A DNA stretch of 62,329 nt, from the IMG/VR virus record IMGVR_UViG_3300036790_000194, positions 1 to 62,329 of that record; one strand, 5' to 3'. Source of the stretch: a virus (lineage: Duplodnaviria > Caudoviricetes). Of the stretch, positions 1 through 17,756 are shown one piece after another; position 1 is the stretch's first letter, and the number at the start of each line of letters is the position of its first letter. The notes under the pieces were generated by a model. It was not told the origin of the DNA. It was given only the letters and a program-made list of their open reading frames with translations, and did no database searches. Both the position numbers and the translations under genes were made by a program.

Positions 1-131
1 ACCGAGATTGCCTGCGGAGGGCCGCCCTGAACGACGCCTGTGTATGTCGTTGTCGGGCCGCTGTAATCAGCTAACGCGACCGTTGCGATGAACGGCGCGA
101 GGAACAGGATTTTGGCGGGCAGATTTCTCAT
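1..131 (-). CDS. 5' fragment of a secreted tailspike-like gene running off the window start (MRNLPAKILFLAPFIATVALA-DYSGPTTTYTG...)
   Basis: ATG at 131 overlaps the TGA of the 599-aa ORF (ATGA coupling); the frame is open to position 1; signal-peptide-like N-terminus ending in ALA. Confidence 0.8.
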   Translation of the reverse strand, partial: MRNLPAKILFLAPFIATVALADYSGPTTTYTGVVQGGPPQAIS

Positions 132-1927
132 GGCGTCGAAAATCCTATGCTATAAAACGGCCTGCCGCCCGTGGCGGAAGTTGACGTAATGATTTGAACG
201 GCGGTGTTTTGTCCAGCCGTAATAGACGCGCTGTCCGTTGTGTCTGTGCATGATGTATTGGTATTCGCGATCTGGCATGTGGGTCCGCTGGCTGGACTGG
301 CCCCGTTAACTCTCAATGTGCAGATGTCGGTGTTACCGGTACCGGGAGCAACGCCAACACTGCAATAGAAACTCTTGAATGTTCCAGTTATCGCCCACGG
401 GACGTTGATGCCACCCTCGGTTCCTGTCGTGCTTGTAGTGAACCCTTCCAGCGGAAAATATGCCGTCGTATTGGCCGTCAGGATGGCTAAAGCACCGCCC
501 GCCGCGACGCTGCGCGCCGTCGTGAGATAGGTCGAGCTACGGTTCCATATGTCTCGCGTCGCCAGATTAGGGACCGTCCACGACGGGAAAATCCCAAAAC
601 TCGGAACGAGCGGCCAATATCCTGGACCAATGACGATCTCAGAAAGATTGGCGTTTGTGATATCCCAAACATTCTGGAATTGAGTTGAAAGTGAATTCGA
701 CGCGGGGCCTACTGAATAGTCCGATATGTTCCACCCATTCGCGTTTACTTGAAATGCCGCCGTCGCAGCGTGCGTATTGTCGTCTTCAACGACCGCGCCA
801 AGAATCGTATCGTTCTCATAGCCGACCCCTGAAATCTGAACCGGGATTGTGCCGTCGCGTTCAAGCGGACGCGGCGCAACAAATCGAATGCCTGTAACGG
901 ACTGGCCGCTCTGCGCGTTCATCACAATGGCAGCGCCCGTTTCAGTCGCAAGCCGCAAGCTGTTGAACGTCCAAACACCAGCAATGCCACAACCGGACTG
1001 CACTCCCCCTGGACAAGAAGCTGCGACTGGAGAGAAAAGCTCTAATGCTGCAACCGATGTATGGTCGAACGCTGACATCGCATCCGTTGTGATATCATAA
1101 ATACTACCGTTCGTCAGATCGGCATAAAGCCCATACGGCTTTCCGACTCCATTCGTGCCAGCATTGAAGCATTGAAGCTCCACGTTCACCATCGTTACGC
1201 CATCGACGAACTGCCCTGTTGCCGGGGCGAGACGCACCATCGCTCCTGACGTATCGGAATTGCAGACGGAAGCTCCTGTATTGCCACCGTTAAACTGAAT
1301 GTTTGCCATATAGGTATTGGAACCCGCCGCGAACAGAAAATTTGAATGGTCATTTATTCCATTTTTGAAATCGCCACTGATGTTTACGAACGTACCGCGC
1401 GATGGCCCTTGCGTAGCGTCGCCCTGTTCAAACACGGATGAGGCATGATTGATAACGAGATTGGAAATCTTCCAGTCCGTGGCGTTCACGACATCGAGCG
1501 CAAACGTGTTGGCTGTCGGTGCGTTGTTAAACACCAAATTGAAATCGTGAATGTAGGGCGATATAGCTGACGTGCCATCGGCACCCAATGTAAAGAACGT
1601 CGTTGCGCTGGCCGAATCCGAAACTGGAAAGGTCAATCGAGTCGTTGGTCCCTGCCCGTATATTTCACCGCAACGTCCAGTAAGCGCCGGAGGGTTCGAT
1701 GCCAAATTCCATGTTCCACTCGGAAAAAATATGCCTCCGATGGTTCCGGCAATACAGTCGGTGATGGCGTTGGCAAAAGCGGTCGAATTGGCCGTAGCGG
1801 TTGACGAGGTGGTCACGCCGTAATTCGTAATAGGCACGATAGGAAGATTTAGCGGTCCGCTATAATCAGCATAGGCCGCCGTCACTGCCGATAGGCAGGC
1901 AATCGCAATAAGGAACTTGCGAAGCAC
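128..1927 (-). CDS. Tailspike / receptor-binding protein, pectin-lyase-like beta-helix, with N-terminal signal peptide
   Basis: PITNYG...STAFANAITD...GGIFFPSGTW resembles the start of a pectate_lyase_3-type beta-helix; rich in N/T/G/S; N-terminus MLRKFLIAIACLSAVTAAYA-DYSGP; 10 Cys in the mature part. Confidence 0.75.
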   Translation of the reverse strand: MLRKFLIAIACLSAVTAAYADYSGPLNLPIVPITNYGVTTSSTATANSTAFANAITDCIAGTIGGIFFPSGTWNLASNPPALTGRCGEIYGQGPTTRLTFPVSDSASATTFFTLGADGTSAISPYIHDFNLVFNNAPTANTFALDVVNATDWKISNLVINHASSVFEQGDATQGPSRGTFVNISGDFKNGINDHSNFLFAAGSNTYMANIQFNGGNTGASVCNSDTSGAMVRLAPATGQFVDGVTMVNVELQCFNAGTNGVGKPYGLYADLTNGSIYDITTDAMSAFDHTSVAALELFSPVAASCPGGVQSGCGIAGVWTFNSLRLATETGAAIVMNAQSGQSVTGIRFVAPRPLERDGTIPVQISGVGYENDTILGAVVEDDNTHAATAAFQVNANGWNISDYSVGPASNSLSTQFQNVWDITNANLSEIVIGPGYWPLVPSFGIFPSWTVPNLATRDIWNRSSTYLTTARSVAAGGALAILTANTTAYFPLEGFTTSTTGTEGGINVPWAITGTFKSFYCSVGVAPGTGNTDICTLRVNGASPASGPTCQIANTNTSCTDTTDSASITAGQNTAVQIITSTSATGGRPFYSIGFSTP

Positions 1928-2449
1928 CTATTTTGCCCCTACGGTAAGAGGGGTTGATGCGGCGCTCGCTATCGCGAACCACTGATCGGAAGGAACGTAT
2001 GTGCCCTCAAATGATTTGTCCCATAGAGGCGGCAGCGTAATCTCTCCCGCAGCGCAGGCCGTTCCGGTGATCGTCGCGGGATTAGTCGTGCTAATACAAA
2101 TCGTGGCCGTGGGACTCTGATTATGAAAATCCGCAAAGACTTTCGCCGTCGATGCAGCCAATATCGAACCGGATGAAGTCCCGACCGTGACACCAGAATA
2201 AGCTCCGGCTGAGTTGGTGGGAGCGGAGACAACCGTTCCCGTAAATGTGCCACTCGTGCAACCGTTGCCGTTTTGATCCTGCGTCTGCGGCATATTTCTT
2301 CCGACAGAGTATGTCGAGTTCGGGGAGCCGCAAGCCGTGACCACATTCAACAGCGGGGGCGTGGATTGCGCGCGCGCCTCGCTTTGCCACACCGCTGACG
2401 CGACAACCGCTAGACTAACATGCGCGGCGAAGAGAATTGCGCGCTTCAC
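1928..2449 (-). CDS. Small secreted, probably virion-associated protein (173 aa)
   Basis: Start re-assigned to GTG 2449 (GTGA overlap with the upstream stop); MKRAILFAAHVSLAVVASAVWQSEARA-QSTPP is signal-peptide-like; 4 Cys. Confidence 0.7.
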   Translation of the reverse strand: MKRAILFAAHVSLAVVASAVWQSEARAQSTPPLLNVVTACGSPNSTYSVGRNMPQTQDQNGNGCTSGTFTGTVVSAPTNSAGAYSGVTVGTSSGSILAASTAKVFADFHNQSPTATICISTTNPATITGTACAAGEITLPPLWDKSFEGTYVPSDQWFAIASAASTPLTVGAK

Positions 2450-16267: not shown

Positions 16268-16268
16268 G

Positions 16269-17756
16269 TCACAGCACCCAGCTTACCAGCACGGCACCAT
16301 TGCCGCCTGTACCACCCGTCACGTCCGAGCCGCCGCGCATACCACCTGCCCCGCCAGCGCCAAGGCCATTTGCGCTTCCGCCATTGCCGGTCGTGGCCGC
16401 AATGCAGAGTGCACCGCCACCGGTTCCGAACGAAGAATTCCCGCCGCCACCCGAACAACCCGTCGTCGCGTTGGAATAGCCTGCCTGCCCGTAGCCGCCC
16501 GGAGCCTGCGCGGATATGACATTCGTCCACGCCAAGGCAAGTCCGGTTGCACCAGCCGTCGCCACATTGGCGTTGAGGCGATTACCTTGCGAGATCGAAA
16601 CCCTGCTCGCATCAGGAGAACTATTGCCCGGCAAGCCGCCTTTCGCGACGACAATGCTTGTGGCCGCATAGGTGAGTGTGGTGTCACCACCAGTATTGGC
16701 CGATGTTGCGCCACCACCGACACTCACCGTGACGGTCTGTCCGGCAGTAAAGCCGCTAAAGTCCGCAATGACTTCGGATCCCGCCATGCCTCCGGCACCG
16801 GCAGCGCCGGATGATGTCGTCCCTGCGCCGCCACCACCGCCGCCGCCAATGGCGTGAAACCGAAACACAGTCGCCGTTGTAGCTGCGGCAGGAATCGTAA
16901 AGCTGCCATTGGAAGTGATGAGTTGTTCGTTGAGGACCGGGATTACAGTTGCGGAGGGCGATGCCGAAGCCCCGCTTTCATTGGCCAGCATTGTGCCATT
17001 CGCGATTGCTGCAAGGCCCGCTGCCGGAAGTTGCTGAAACGTCGGGTCCGCCGATGCACCATTGGACAGAAGCGCGTAGCCACTCGTGCCTGCAGCGGTC
17101 GGATTGACACCTGCCGTTCCGGCCCCGACGAGAACACCGTGGTTGGTGAGCGTCGCGCGTCCCGTGCCCCCTTGCGGCGCACTCAATGGAGTCGTGAGGC
17201 CAGCAAGTGATGTGATGTCCGAGTTGGCACCAGAAGCCGCCGCTCCCATGCCGAGCGTATCGACAGCGCGATGGACGTTTGTGCCATCGCTGATGAGCAG
17301 CGCGCGTCCGCCTTGGGGGATGGAAATAACCGTCCCGGCAGGATTTCCCGTGCCGTCATTCGCACCCGCGCCGAGCGTGAAGGCCCCGGTCGTGCCATTG
17401 AACACGGTGAATAGTTCGCAGCCGCCTTGCGGGTACAGAACGTCGATATTTCCCGTCAATGTGCCGGTTAAGATGAAACTCATATGCCGGGATTGGTCCG
17501 CAGCGCCATTGGCGACCGTCAGGACGACGTTGGAATTGCCTGCTACCGACAGGCTCAGAGTCGAACCAACGGCAGCGTCGATCAGCGTACGGCCCGTATT
17601 CTCAAGCGTGCCCCATGTGTTGGTGACAGAGGGGTCGCCCGGCTGAGGCTGTGGCATTCTGACGCAAGCCGAGAACGTAGTTGCCGCATTTACGGGAGCT
17701 GAAAGTATGCCAGCCAACATAGCGACGCTTAAAGCTGCGGTGACGAGATGTTTCAT
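16269..17756 (-). CDS. Tail fibre protein with N-terminal signal peptide and Gly-rich C-terminal domain
   Basis: MKHLVTAALSVAMLAGILSAPVNA then ATTFS...GD...NTWG...N...LIDAAV fibre-anchor-like domain; SGANSDITSL..LTTPLS..QGGTG; IGGGGGGG...GGNGAVLV.W glycine-rich domain. Confidence 0.8.
   Translation of the reverse strand: MKHLVTAALSVAMLAGILSAPVNAATTFSACVRMPQPQPGDPSVTNTWGTLENTGRTLIDAAVGSTLSLSVAGNSNVVLTVANGAADQSRHMSFILTGTLTGNIDVLYPQGGCELFTVFNGTTGAFTLGAGANDGTGNPAGTVISIPQGGRALLISDGTNVHRAVDTLGMGAAASGANSDITSLAGLTTPLSAPQGGTGRATLTNHGVLVGAGTAGVNPTAAGTSGYALLSNGASADPTFQQLPAAGLAAIANGTMLANESGASASPSATVIPVLNEQLITSNGSFTIPAAATTATVFRFHAIGGGGGGGAGTTSSGAAGAGGMAGSEVIADFSGFTAGQTVTVSVGGGATSANTGGDTTLTYAATSIVVAKGGLPGNSSPDASRVSISQGNRLNANVATAGATGLALAWTNVISAQAPGGYGQAGYSNATTGCSGGGGNSSFGTGGGALCIAATTGNGGSANGLGAGGAGGMRGGSDVTGGTGGNGAVLVSWVL

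Follow-up and report, generated by a model that had tools for sequence, protein, structure and literature searches.

Sec-type signal peptide-like N-termini, coupled to a cysteine pair, in the tail-fibre family and candidate receptor-binding module of a podovirus contig

Assembly of tailed phages is taught as an entirely cytoplasmic process. Why should the tail fibre and the candidate tailspikes of such a phage begin with what look like Sec signal peptides? The question is raised by a 62,329-nucleotide (nt) stretch of viral DNA, IMG/VR record IMGVR_UViG_3300036790_000194, which we analysed as a whole and refer to as the window. An earlier note on this DNA had pointed to five late genes with such N-termini and paired cysteines, and had proposed that fibres and spikes are exported, folded with disulfides and attached when the cell lyses or after release. 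In our comparison the signal peptides come out as real, conserved coding features, and within the tail-fibre family they are coupled to a pair of cysteines. Export of the receptor-binding proteins, a step that we infer, is well supported by this comparison.

The receptor-binding module consists of one tail fibre, three spike-like proteins (one of them known from 43 codons) and two small proteins, and by their predicted N-terminal sequences all six genes have Sec-type signal peptide-like N-termini. The genes and the parts of the fibre, with lengths in amino acids (aa), are the following:

16269..17756, minus strand: tail fibre, 495 aa (open reading frame, ORF; Gly_rich_2 PF21722, E-value (E) 4.9e-8)
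17685-17756, minus strand: signal-peptide-like segment, fibre residues 1-24 (rule-based)
fibre residues ~25-165, minus strand: conserved fibre N-domain with Cys31 and Cys113 (homologues in podovirus loci and in the protein database)
fibre residues ~280-495, minus strand: glycine-rich domain with Cys434 and Cys451 (Gly_rich_2 PF21722)
2446..2919, minus strand: 157-aa protein with a signal-peptide-like N-terminus, a GTG start behind AAGGGG and 4 mature cysteines
1928..2449, minus strand: 173-aa protein with a signal-peptide-like N-terminus, 4 mature cysteines and a start that overlaps the upstream stop (ATGA)
128..1927, minus strand: 599-aa spike-like protein; predicted signal peptide followed by DYSGP, with a beta-helix-cap-like motif ~12 residues past the cleavage site; 10 cysteines
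3..131, minus strand: gene X, 5' 43 codons with a predicted signal peptide and DYSGP; the remainder lies past the contig start
59936..62329, minus strand: 797-aa spike-like protein, 5'-truncated, its first 7 residues being the predicted end of its own signal peptide; 14 cysteines, mostly in close pairs

The N-termini were judged by an ad hoc rule of our own, whose strict form is passed by a sequence with a positive net charge, 10 or more uncharged hydrophobic residues and a small residue at each of -3 and -1. Applied to the gene starts used in the earlier note, the rule was passed by all five N-termini, which lie where the note had placed them on the minus strand, and by none of the 19 other late genes (terminase, portal, capsid, adaptors, nozzle, internal proteins and endolysin-like), in line with its claim that the core structural genes have no such peptide. 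Its count had to be raised from five to six, since the 797-aa gene has a truncated signal of its own, and both full-length homologues of that gene pass the strict rule. Within the late operon, the signal is thus confined to candidate receptor-binding proteins. On longest-ORF starts, the strict rule flagged 3 of the 74 window ORFs (one of them antisense), 8/322 (2.5%) ORFs of related phage loci and 175/2029 (8.6%) ORFs of the metagenome bin that holds the contig; a looser version flagged 14/81 ORFs.

In each of the five N-termini, a basic start leads into a hydrophobic stretch without charges, and the residues at -3 and -1 are small. All six sites are of the AxA type, several with a proline just before. 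No lipobox cysteine stands at +1 in any of the six, and by eye we saw no PEP-CTERM, lipobox or type IV pilin-like signals in the N-terminal sequences. Five lack an RR motif; the 157-aa protein begins M-R-R-I-W-L, which is loosely Tat-like, but its peptide has only 20 residues.

The gene starts are well fixed, because 2446-2919 and 1928-2449, as well as the 599-aa gene and gene X, overlap by ATGA, and 1928-2449 and 128-1927 abut. The ATG of the fibre gene lies 7 nt past the upstream stop with GAGGG before it, and no in-frame start occurs between codons 13/14 and 34. Fibre residues 25-33 have conserved counterparts in relatives and are therefore coding. True starts downstream of the hydrophobic stretches, which the earlier note had named as a way in which its idea could fail, are ruled against by the overlaps and by this start-free interval. 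We also considered a dual start at codons 1 and 34, giving exported and cytoplasmic isoforms, and found it unsupported: among the 14 signal-bearing fibres described below, Met34 is found only in the window protein and P0027. The database gene call of the window fibre, P0003, takes codon 34 as its start, which leaves the signal peptide out of view, and automatic start calls may conceal the trait elsewhere, for example in P0036, P0037 and P0050, which begin right at the conserved motif.

The earlier description of these proteins as tail fibres and tailspikes stands for the 495-aa protein, which by sequence homology, gene position and predicted fold is a genuine member of a podovirus tail-fibre family; the 599-aa and 797-aa proteins, for their part, match no family and no beta-helix profile. 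Homologues of the fibre N-domain are encoded by 11 ORFs of related podovirus loci. The protein database holds 128 relatives at E <=0.001, the best 120 of which were analysed, and their C-termini are Collar, Peptidase_S74 or Gly_rich_2; among IMG/VR stretches, 371/600 were confirmed as fibre relatives. The gene is flanked by two SU10-type adaptor genes and lies upstream of the nozzle gene, as in the related loci L015 and L004. An AlphaFold2 (AF2) model built from the 55-sequence alignment described below reached a predicted local distance difference test score (pLDDT) >90 for residues 50-165, and its top PDB fold match was the fibre of cyanophage Pam3 (7ypx_A; E 7.8e-6, template-modelling score (TM) 0.52 by target, 21% identity), which is virion-bound. 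In BFVD there were 179 fold matches at E <=0.001, and most of the named ones among the best 50 are glycine-rich-domain, collagen-like and tail-fibre or tail proteins of phages and giant viruses.

A search of GenBank phages with the fibre protein gave no match at E 1e-6 and, at E 0.05, six distant records annotated as tail protein or tail fibre. A genome-collection scan with the fibre alignment found no match, and in sampled genomes there was a match, a weak one, in 1/400 of the bin's family and in 0/400 of its phylum.

How does a family of ordinary fibres come to include signal-bearing ones? In the related loci, 11/11 signal-less homologues begin at the predicted cleavage site of the window fibre, and the same start position, with a methionine plus a small residue, was found in 78 of the 80 best IMG/VR loci. 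Because the signal-less relatives start exactly at the cleavage site, the peptide looks like a graft placed before an unchanged docking end. Among the window protein and its 119 relatives (the best 120 of 128), 14 have a signal-like N-terminus; their sequences are divergent and the n-h-c form is kept.

On sequence evidence, the signal peptide is coupled to cysteines in the fibre family. We aligned the window protein with P0004-P0057, which gave 55 sequences, 14 signal-bearing and 41 signal-less. Cysteine stands at both the Cys31 and the Cys113 columns in 13/14 of the former vs 0/41 of the latter, the sole exception being P0027, which bears a signal and has cysteines at other positions. Across the best 120 of 128 relatives, mature chains with a signal have 2-10 cysteines (median 4), and those without have a median of 1, with 49/106 having none at all. 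It is this coupling to the signal, not the cysteines alone, that argues for oxidative export. The earlier note had suggested looking for the same pattern in related genomes, and at the level of single fibre proteins it recurs in some relatives.

When mapped onto a FastTree tree of the N-domain with midpoint rooting, the signal state requires 5 changes, compared with a mean of 12.6 and a minimum of 8 in 1000 label shuffles. A main clade of 13 tips (support 0.87) has the signal in 11; the two signal-less tips nested within it (supports 0.94 and 0.95) have lost both cysteines, and both are present in a separate signal-bearing pair, P0009 and P0039. It is possible, although we put it at somewhat less than an even chance, that signal and cysteine pair have come and gone jointly on several occasions, so that cytoplasmic and periplasmic maturation would be interchangeable states; this forms part of the two-compartment reading set out below. 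A distant fibre homologue with 35% identity (L059:9956-11605, near-identical in L060) has a signal-like N-terminus that abuts the conserved start of the fibre and lacks the Cys31/Cys113 pair. It is possibly an independent gain of the signal.

The 797-aa protein has its own small family. Its homologues P0124 and P0125 (68% and 65% identity) both begin with a complete predicted signal peptide, the last residues of which align to the first seven residues of the 797-aa ORF. The contig end therefore removes ~14 codons of the gene. The signal is present in 2/2 full-length members and 14 cysteines are present in 3/3 members; 12 cysteine columns are invariant, and in P0125 one close pair has been swapped for another, which from the alignment is the behaviour expected of disulfide partners. 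A metagenome scan with a 798-aa protein, aimed at the gene context of signal-bearing relatives, turned up nothing beyond one distant locus, L104, in which no protein bears a signal.

The mature cysteine counts (599-aa protein 10, 157-aa 4, 173-aa 4, fibre 4, 797-aa 14) and the four cysteine motifs quoted in the earlier note were all confirmed, and the count is even in all five mature parts. Together these parts hold 36 cysteines in 2123 aa (1.70%) vs 14 in 4741 aa (0.30%) for ten signal-less late proteins. The proposal that the proteins would be exported and folded with disulfides is supported by comparison (the 13/14 against 0/41 contrast, the ~5 changes and the constant 14 cysteines of the 797-aa family).

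Could gene X be the missing front end of the 797-aa protein? A circular join of the two was considered and rejected: the ends have no terminal overlap, the frames are one base off if the ends abut, and the homologues give the 797-aa protein a signal peptide of its own. Gene X is a separate, sixth gene. Its A|DYSGP junction has 20/22 nt in common with that of the 599-aa gene, and the two have diverged elsewhere. The common DYSGP could be a short docking peptide or reflect a constraint on the cleavage site. The two large spikes have no similarity that would indicate paralogy, and homologues of the 599-aa protein were limited to itself among 5.8 billion proteins, with none in GenBank phages. In the one sequencing run with this DNA, possibly the run it came from, the main contig (depth 16) stops at 62329, and two contigs (1891 nt, depth 8.5; 963 nt, depth 7.0) overlap it only in 30 bases, 62300-62329. 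Because the assembly forks at 62329, two variants appear to coexist between the 797-aa gene and gene X; the fork sits inside the receptor-binding cassette.

How could exported fibres meet particles made in the cytoplasm? A putative lysis cassette (58548..59942, minus strand) lies directly after the 797-aa gene:

59478-59942, minus strand: DUF5675/Tlde1-like protein without a membrane segment, a putative endolysin (PF18925, E 5.8e-26)
59305-59466, minus strand: 53-aa protein with two hydrophobic segments (hydropathy scan)
58951-59301, minus strand: 116-aa membrane protein (hydropathy scan)
58548-58946, minus strand: 132-aa protein with one N-terminal membrane segment (hydropathy scan)

Going only by the family match and hydropathy, these would be a soluble endolysin, one or more holins and an inner-membrane spanin; no outer-membrane spanin lipoprotein was recognised in 58548-59942. 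A soluble endolysin depends on large holin lesions, and a holin of this kind is implied here because the endolysin-like protein has no export signal. The host bin contains four matches to signal peptidase I, five to DsbA-like Thioredoxin_4 and one to VKOR. P22 tailspikes and T7 fibres can reportedly join finished particles in vitro.

In the route that we propose, the six proteins of the module would cross the inner membrane unfolded via Sec late in infection. Signal peptidase I would cleave them, in the case of the fibre recreating the ordinary fibre N-terminus, and DsbA-type enzymes would add disulfides in the periplasm. Heads and tails would be assembled in the cytoplasm as usual, and the fibre would dock on finished tails once the holin and soluble-endolysin cassette opens the inner membrane; the spikes would perhaps join the tail via the fibre or via the two small proteins. 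We infer the export, the cleavage, the pairing of cysteines in disulfides and, most of all, when and where attachment happens. We consider the chance about even that periplasmic cleavage and oxidation follow the export of the receptor-binding proteins, which then join cytoplasmic particles at lysis. A two-compartment virion in a lineage of soil podoviruses, in which head and tail are cytoplasmic, the whole receptor-binding set is periplasmic and the two are joined when the holin opens the membrane, we hold more tentatively, as falling a little short of that. For the fibre, whose docking domain is retained and which has the holin/endolysin cassette beside it, attachment at lysis is plausible; for the two spike-like proteins the case is far weaker.

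Several observations weigh against this route. The tree was built on ~140 columns that include the cysteine columns, and the relatives are not independent; moreover, a few database proteins whose start coincides with the conserved motif may have been called too short, like P0003. Cysteine richness alone is not diagnostic, because signal-less fibres can be rich in cysteine as well: those of related loci hold 43 cysteines in 5569 aa, and three of them (in L014) have 8-13 each. The tail of crAss001 is stabilised by disulfides, so these need no export (in an excerpt of PMC10172136). For the 599-aa and 797-aa proteins we recognised no particle-binding or docking domain, searches of Pfam, PHROG, NCBIfam and PDB sequences gave no match, and the leads to a beta-helix fold are weak. 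The Atlas structure rows for the 797-aa protein had TM 0.36-0.45 to beta-helix proteins; Atlas feature scores for the two proteins were 0.89-0.91, and the leads for the 599-aa protein (pectate-lyase-like phage proteins) stood at <=0.89. An AF2 single-sequence model of the 599-aa protein, with pLDDT 36, was unusable. The N-cap region of the 797-aa protein has 48% identity over 57 residues to a signal-less 614-aa phage fibre or spike in locus L193, and that relative has ~240 extra N-terminal residues that the 797-aa protein is without. The host side of the argument is affected too: contig and remainder of the bin have no sequence in common, the tetranucleotide correlation (r) of the contig with the bin is 0.954 compared with at least 0.979 for the bin's 28 other large contigs, and the host assignment of the contig is based on binning alone.

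Because the spike-like proteins have neither a family match nor a docking domain, they may be free secreted enzymes. According to the alternative that survives best, which we regard as distinctly less likely than attachment at lysis, the proteins are exported, and the spike-like ones, the small ones or both are secreted enzymes or receptor maskers, leaving the fibre alone on the particle; the secreted proteins would act on the envelope or exopolysaccharide of the infected cell or be freed at lysis as depolymerases. This secreted-effector role, which the earlier note had offered as its second option, may apply to the spike-like and the two small proteins. The mature spike-like chains begin almost at the cap-like motif (after 12 residues in the 599-aa protein and ~45 in the 797-aa one, set against the ~240 of the L193 relative) and so have no docking domain in front of it. 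In related loci, the genes in the fibre's slot upstream of the adaptor (L007:7198-8238 and L010:761-1609) encode a predicted signal peptide and a glycine-rich domain with 4 cysteines, without the fibre N-domain. Because these loci also encode signal-bearing proteins, predicted exported proteins in the tail module are not unique to our contig; by their domain content, not all of them can dock as the fibre does. L007 has a further signal-bearing protein of 190 aa in the same module (L007:2063-2632).

Precedents for free exported proteins are known. In phage lambda, a signal-bearing, non-structural gene, Lom, lies between tail-fibre genes (per a portion of PMC12309495), although Lom is an outer-membrane barrel of lysogens, whereas in the window the signal belongs to the fibre and to late genes whose translation is coupled. 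WceF of Pantoea stewartii, a tailspike-like trimeric beta-helix, is exported from the cytoplasm and acts on exopolysaccharide (per a portion of PMC7949094); it differs in being chromosomal, in using a Tat signal and in working outside any virion. Against free enzymes speaks the translational coupling of the genes in the late operon, between the internal virion proteins and the lysis genes, which is the fibre site in related phages. Without any attached spike, the fibre would also be the single receptor-binding protein of the particle. Finally, the conserved mature N-terminal DYSGP of the 599-aa protein and gene X counts against this alternative, as some Klebsiella phages use short peptides of this type to dock a second spike.

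A second alternative, which we consider improbable, is that the N-termini are signal-anchor-release (SAR) segments. The proteins would then be exported, left uncleaved, tethered on the outer face of the inner membrane and freed when the holin depolarises it, as SAR endolysins are. Tailed-phage late proteins do use host Sec before lysis, as endolysins of the fOg44 Lys44 and P1 Lyz type show (excerpted from PMC6116005), but these secreted and SAR endolysins serve lysis and are neither virion nor receptor-binding proteins. Ala, Ser, Gly and Thr abound in the hydrophobic cores of the window proteins, which is a trait of SAR domains (in that excerpt of PMC6116005), and release timed to lysis would suit attachment at lysis. 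However, the small -3/-1 residues of all six and the prolines preceding several of them make a classic signal peptidase I site, unlike a SAR domain, and cleavage recreates the exact N-terminus of the signal-less fibres; an uncleaved 24-residue hydrophobic extension at the docking end would probably hinder docking. Least probable of all is that the hydrophobic N-termini are not export signals and the proteins stay cytoplasmic, by way of downstream starts, an assembly or docking helix or a tether on the cytoplasmic face: the P0003 call at codon 34 fits this, but it is countered by the coding residues 25-33 with no start codon between codons 13/14 and 34, the ATGA overlaps, the n-h-c architecture kept through divergent sequence in 14 fibre-family members and two spike relatives, and a link to a cysteine pair that has no obvious reason in a reducing cytoplasm.

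Of the two small proteins, neither has a match in Pfam, PHROG or NCBIfam, nor any relatives, and the two are weakly alike just past the cleavage site (E 0.039). A perfect repeat lies close by:

2857..2980, minus strand: 124-nt perfect direct repeat, copy 1, made of 61 nt of upstream region, including the Shine-Dalgarno sequence, and the first 21 codons of the 157-aa gene (predicted signal peptide)
3207..3330, minus strand: 124-nt repeat, copy 2, directly past the stop of an 1830-aa gene, with the same predicted signal peptide, 6 codons and two stops

The copies are 350 nt apart. Copy 2 is a dead start, because two stops follow after 6 more codons. The repeat has the appearance of a scar left when a cassette was duplicated or exchanged with the 5' end serving as recombination handle, or of an assembly artefact. 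A promoter and terminator scan of 1-3600 gave no score above that of shuffled sequences.

The window is one entire contig (C72) from a metagenome bin of 4.9 Mb and 88.6% completeness. Its ends have no terminal overlap. The contig is a nearly complete podovirus genome. The late operon runs on the minus strand, leaving the window at position 1 and continuing from 62329. Its main landmarks besides the receptor-binding and lysis genes are these:

30535-32166, minus strand: large terminase
27284-29698, minus strand: portal
21760-22671, minus strand: major-head-like protein
18082-19083, minus strand: SU10-type adaptor (PF24175)
15521-16267, minus strand: SU10-type adaptor directly downstream of the fibre gene, without a signal peptide (PF24175, E 3e-16)
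13435-15519, minus strand: nozzle-type tail protein, without a signal peptide (phrog_3287, E 3.4e-55)

Large internal proteins follow the nozzle, one of them with an InPase domain at its end. This 1830-aa internal virion protein (3336-8828) has no cysteine, and its C-terminal InPase domain (PF18823, E 5e-41) recurs as the C-terminal module of otherwise unlike giant proteins in IMG/VR loci L017-L023. The early region holds a 98-nt direct repeat (37593-37690 and 38375-38472, 95% identical, 782 nt apart). Between AAA_24-like and SbcC-like genes, a 171-aa ORF (48188-48703, plus strand) opens with a strongly hydrophobic stretch, either a signal or a membrane anchor, within the replication module; it matched no family.

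The nearest named relatives are distant. Nozzle proteins with 26-32% identity include those of MW202675, DSL-LC04, roseophages CRP-901/902 and Pelagibacter phages HTVC023P/027P, and those of IMG/VR reach 34-39%; a megablast search of GenBank phages with 20 kb gave no match. The host is probably a member of the Acidobacteriaceae: the bin belongs to this family because its RpoB has 93% identity to that of a Terracidiphilus metagenome-assembled genome and 88% to that of Granulicella. To our knowledge, few phages of Acidobacteriaceae have been described, and the contig may be one of few near-complete candidates.

How does the proposed route compare with known systems? Closest are the signal-less fibres of MW202675, DSL-LC04, Pelagibacter phage HTVC027P and IMG/VR loci L003-L016, which have a homologous N-domain in the same adaptor and nozzle neighbourhood and, as in the window family, exchangeable C-terminal receptor-binding domains. 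They differ in having a methionine at the predicted cleavage site of the window fibre and in lacking the two cysteines. The g3p of filamentous phages is likewise a receptor-binding protein with a Sec signal peptide that is oxidised in the periplasm before it joins the particle. However, filamentous virions assemble at the membrane and are extruded through it, whereas the window phage is tailed, with a lysis cassette and heads made in the cytoplasm. In the MAT fibres of Bdellovibrio, a signal peptide precedes a conserved domain of ~130 aa, and the fibre ends vary (described in an excerpt of PMC10769870). This order mirrors that of the signal-bearing fibres, but MAT proteins are bacterial surface adhesins not encoded by phages, and the likeness noted here is one of domain order. 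In the full-text literature that we searched, subscription journals aside, we found no report of Sec signal peptides on tailed-phage fibres or spikes. We regard the fibre as a new variation within a known family; assembly in two compartments, if shown, would be new in kind.

What would this mean for the phages concerned? At the level of annotation, the database gene call drops the signal peptide of the fibre. If the spikes turn out to be free enzymes, the phage would encode enzymes that degrade polysaccharides and are exported by Sec, which we likewise did not find described in the literature searched. If attachment at lysis is true, it would explain oxidatively stabilised receptor-binding proteins in phages of acidic soils, and host range would be tied to the Sec and Dsb systems of the host and to when lysis takes place. 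A fibre family able to change from a cytoplasmic to an exported, disulfide-bonded form and back would then reveal a second route for the last step of tailed-phage assembly.

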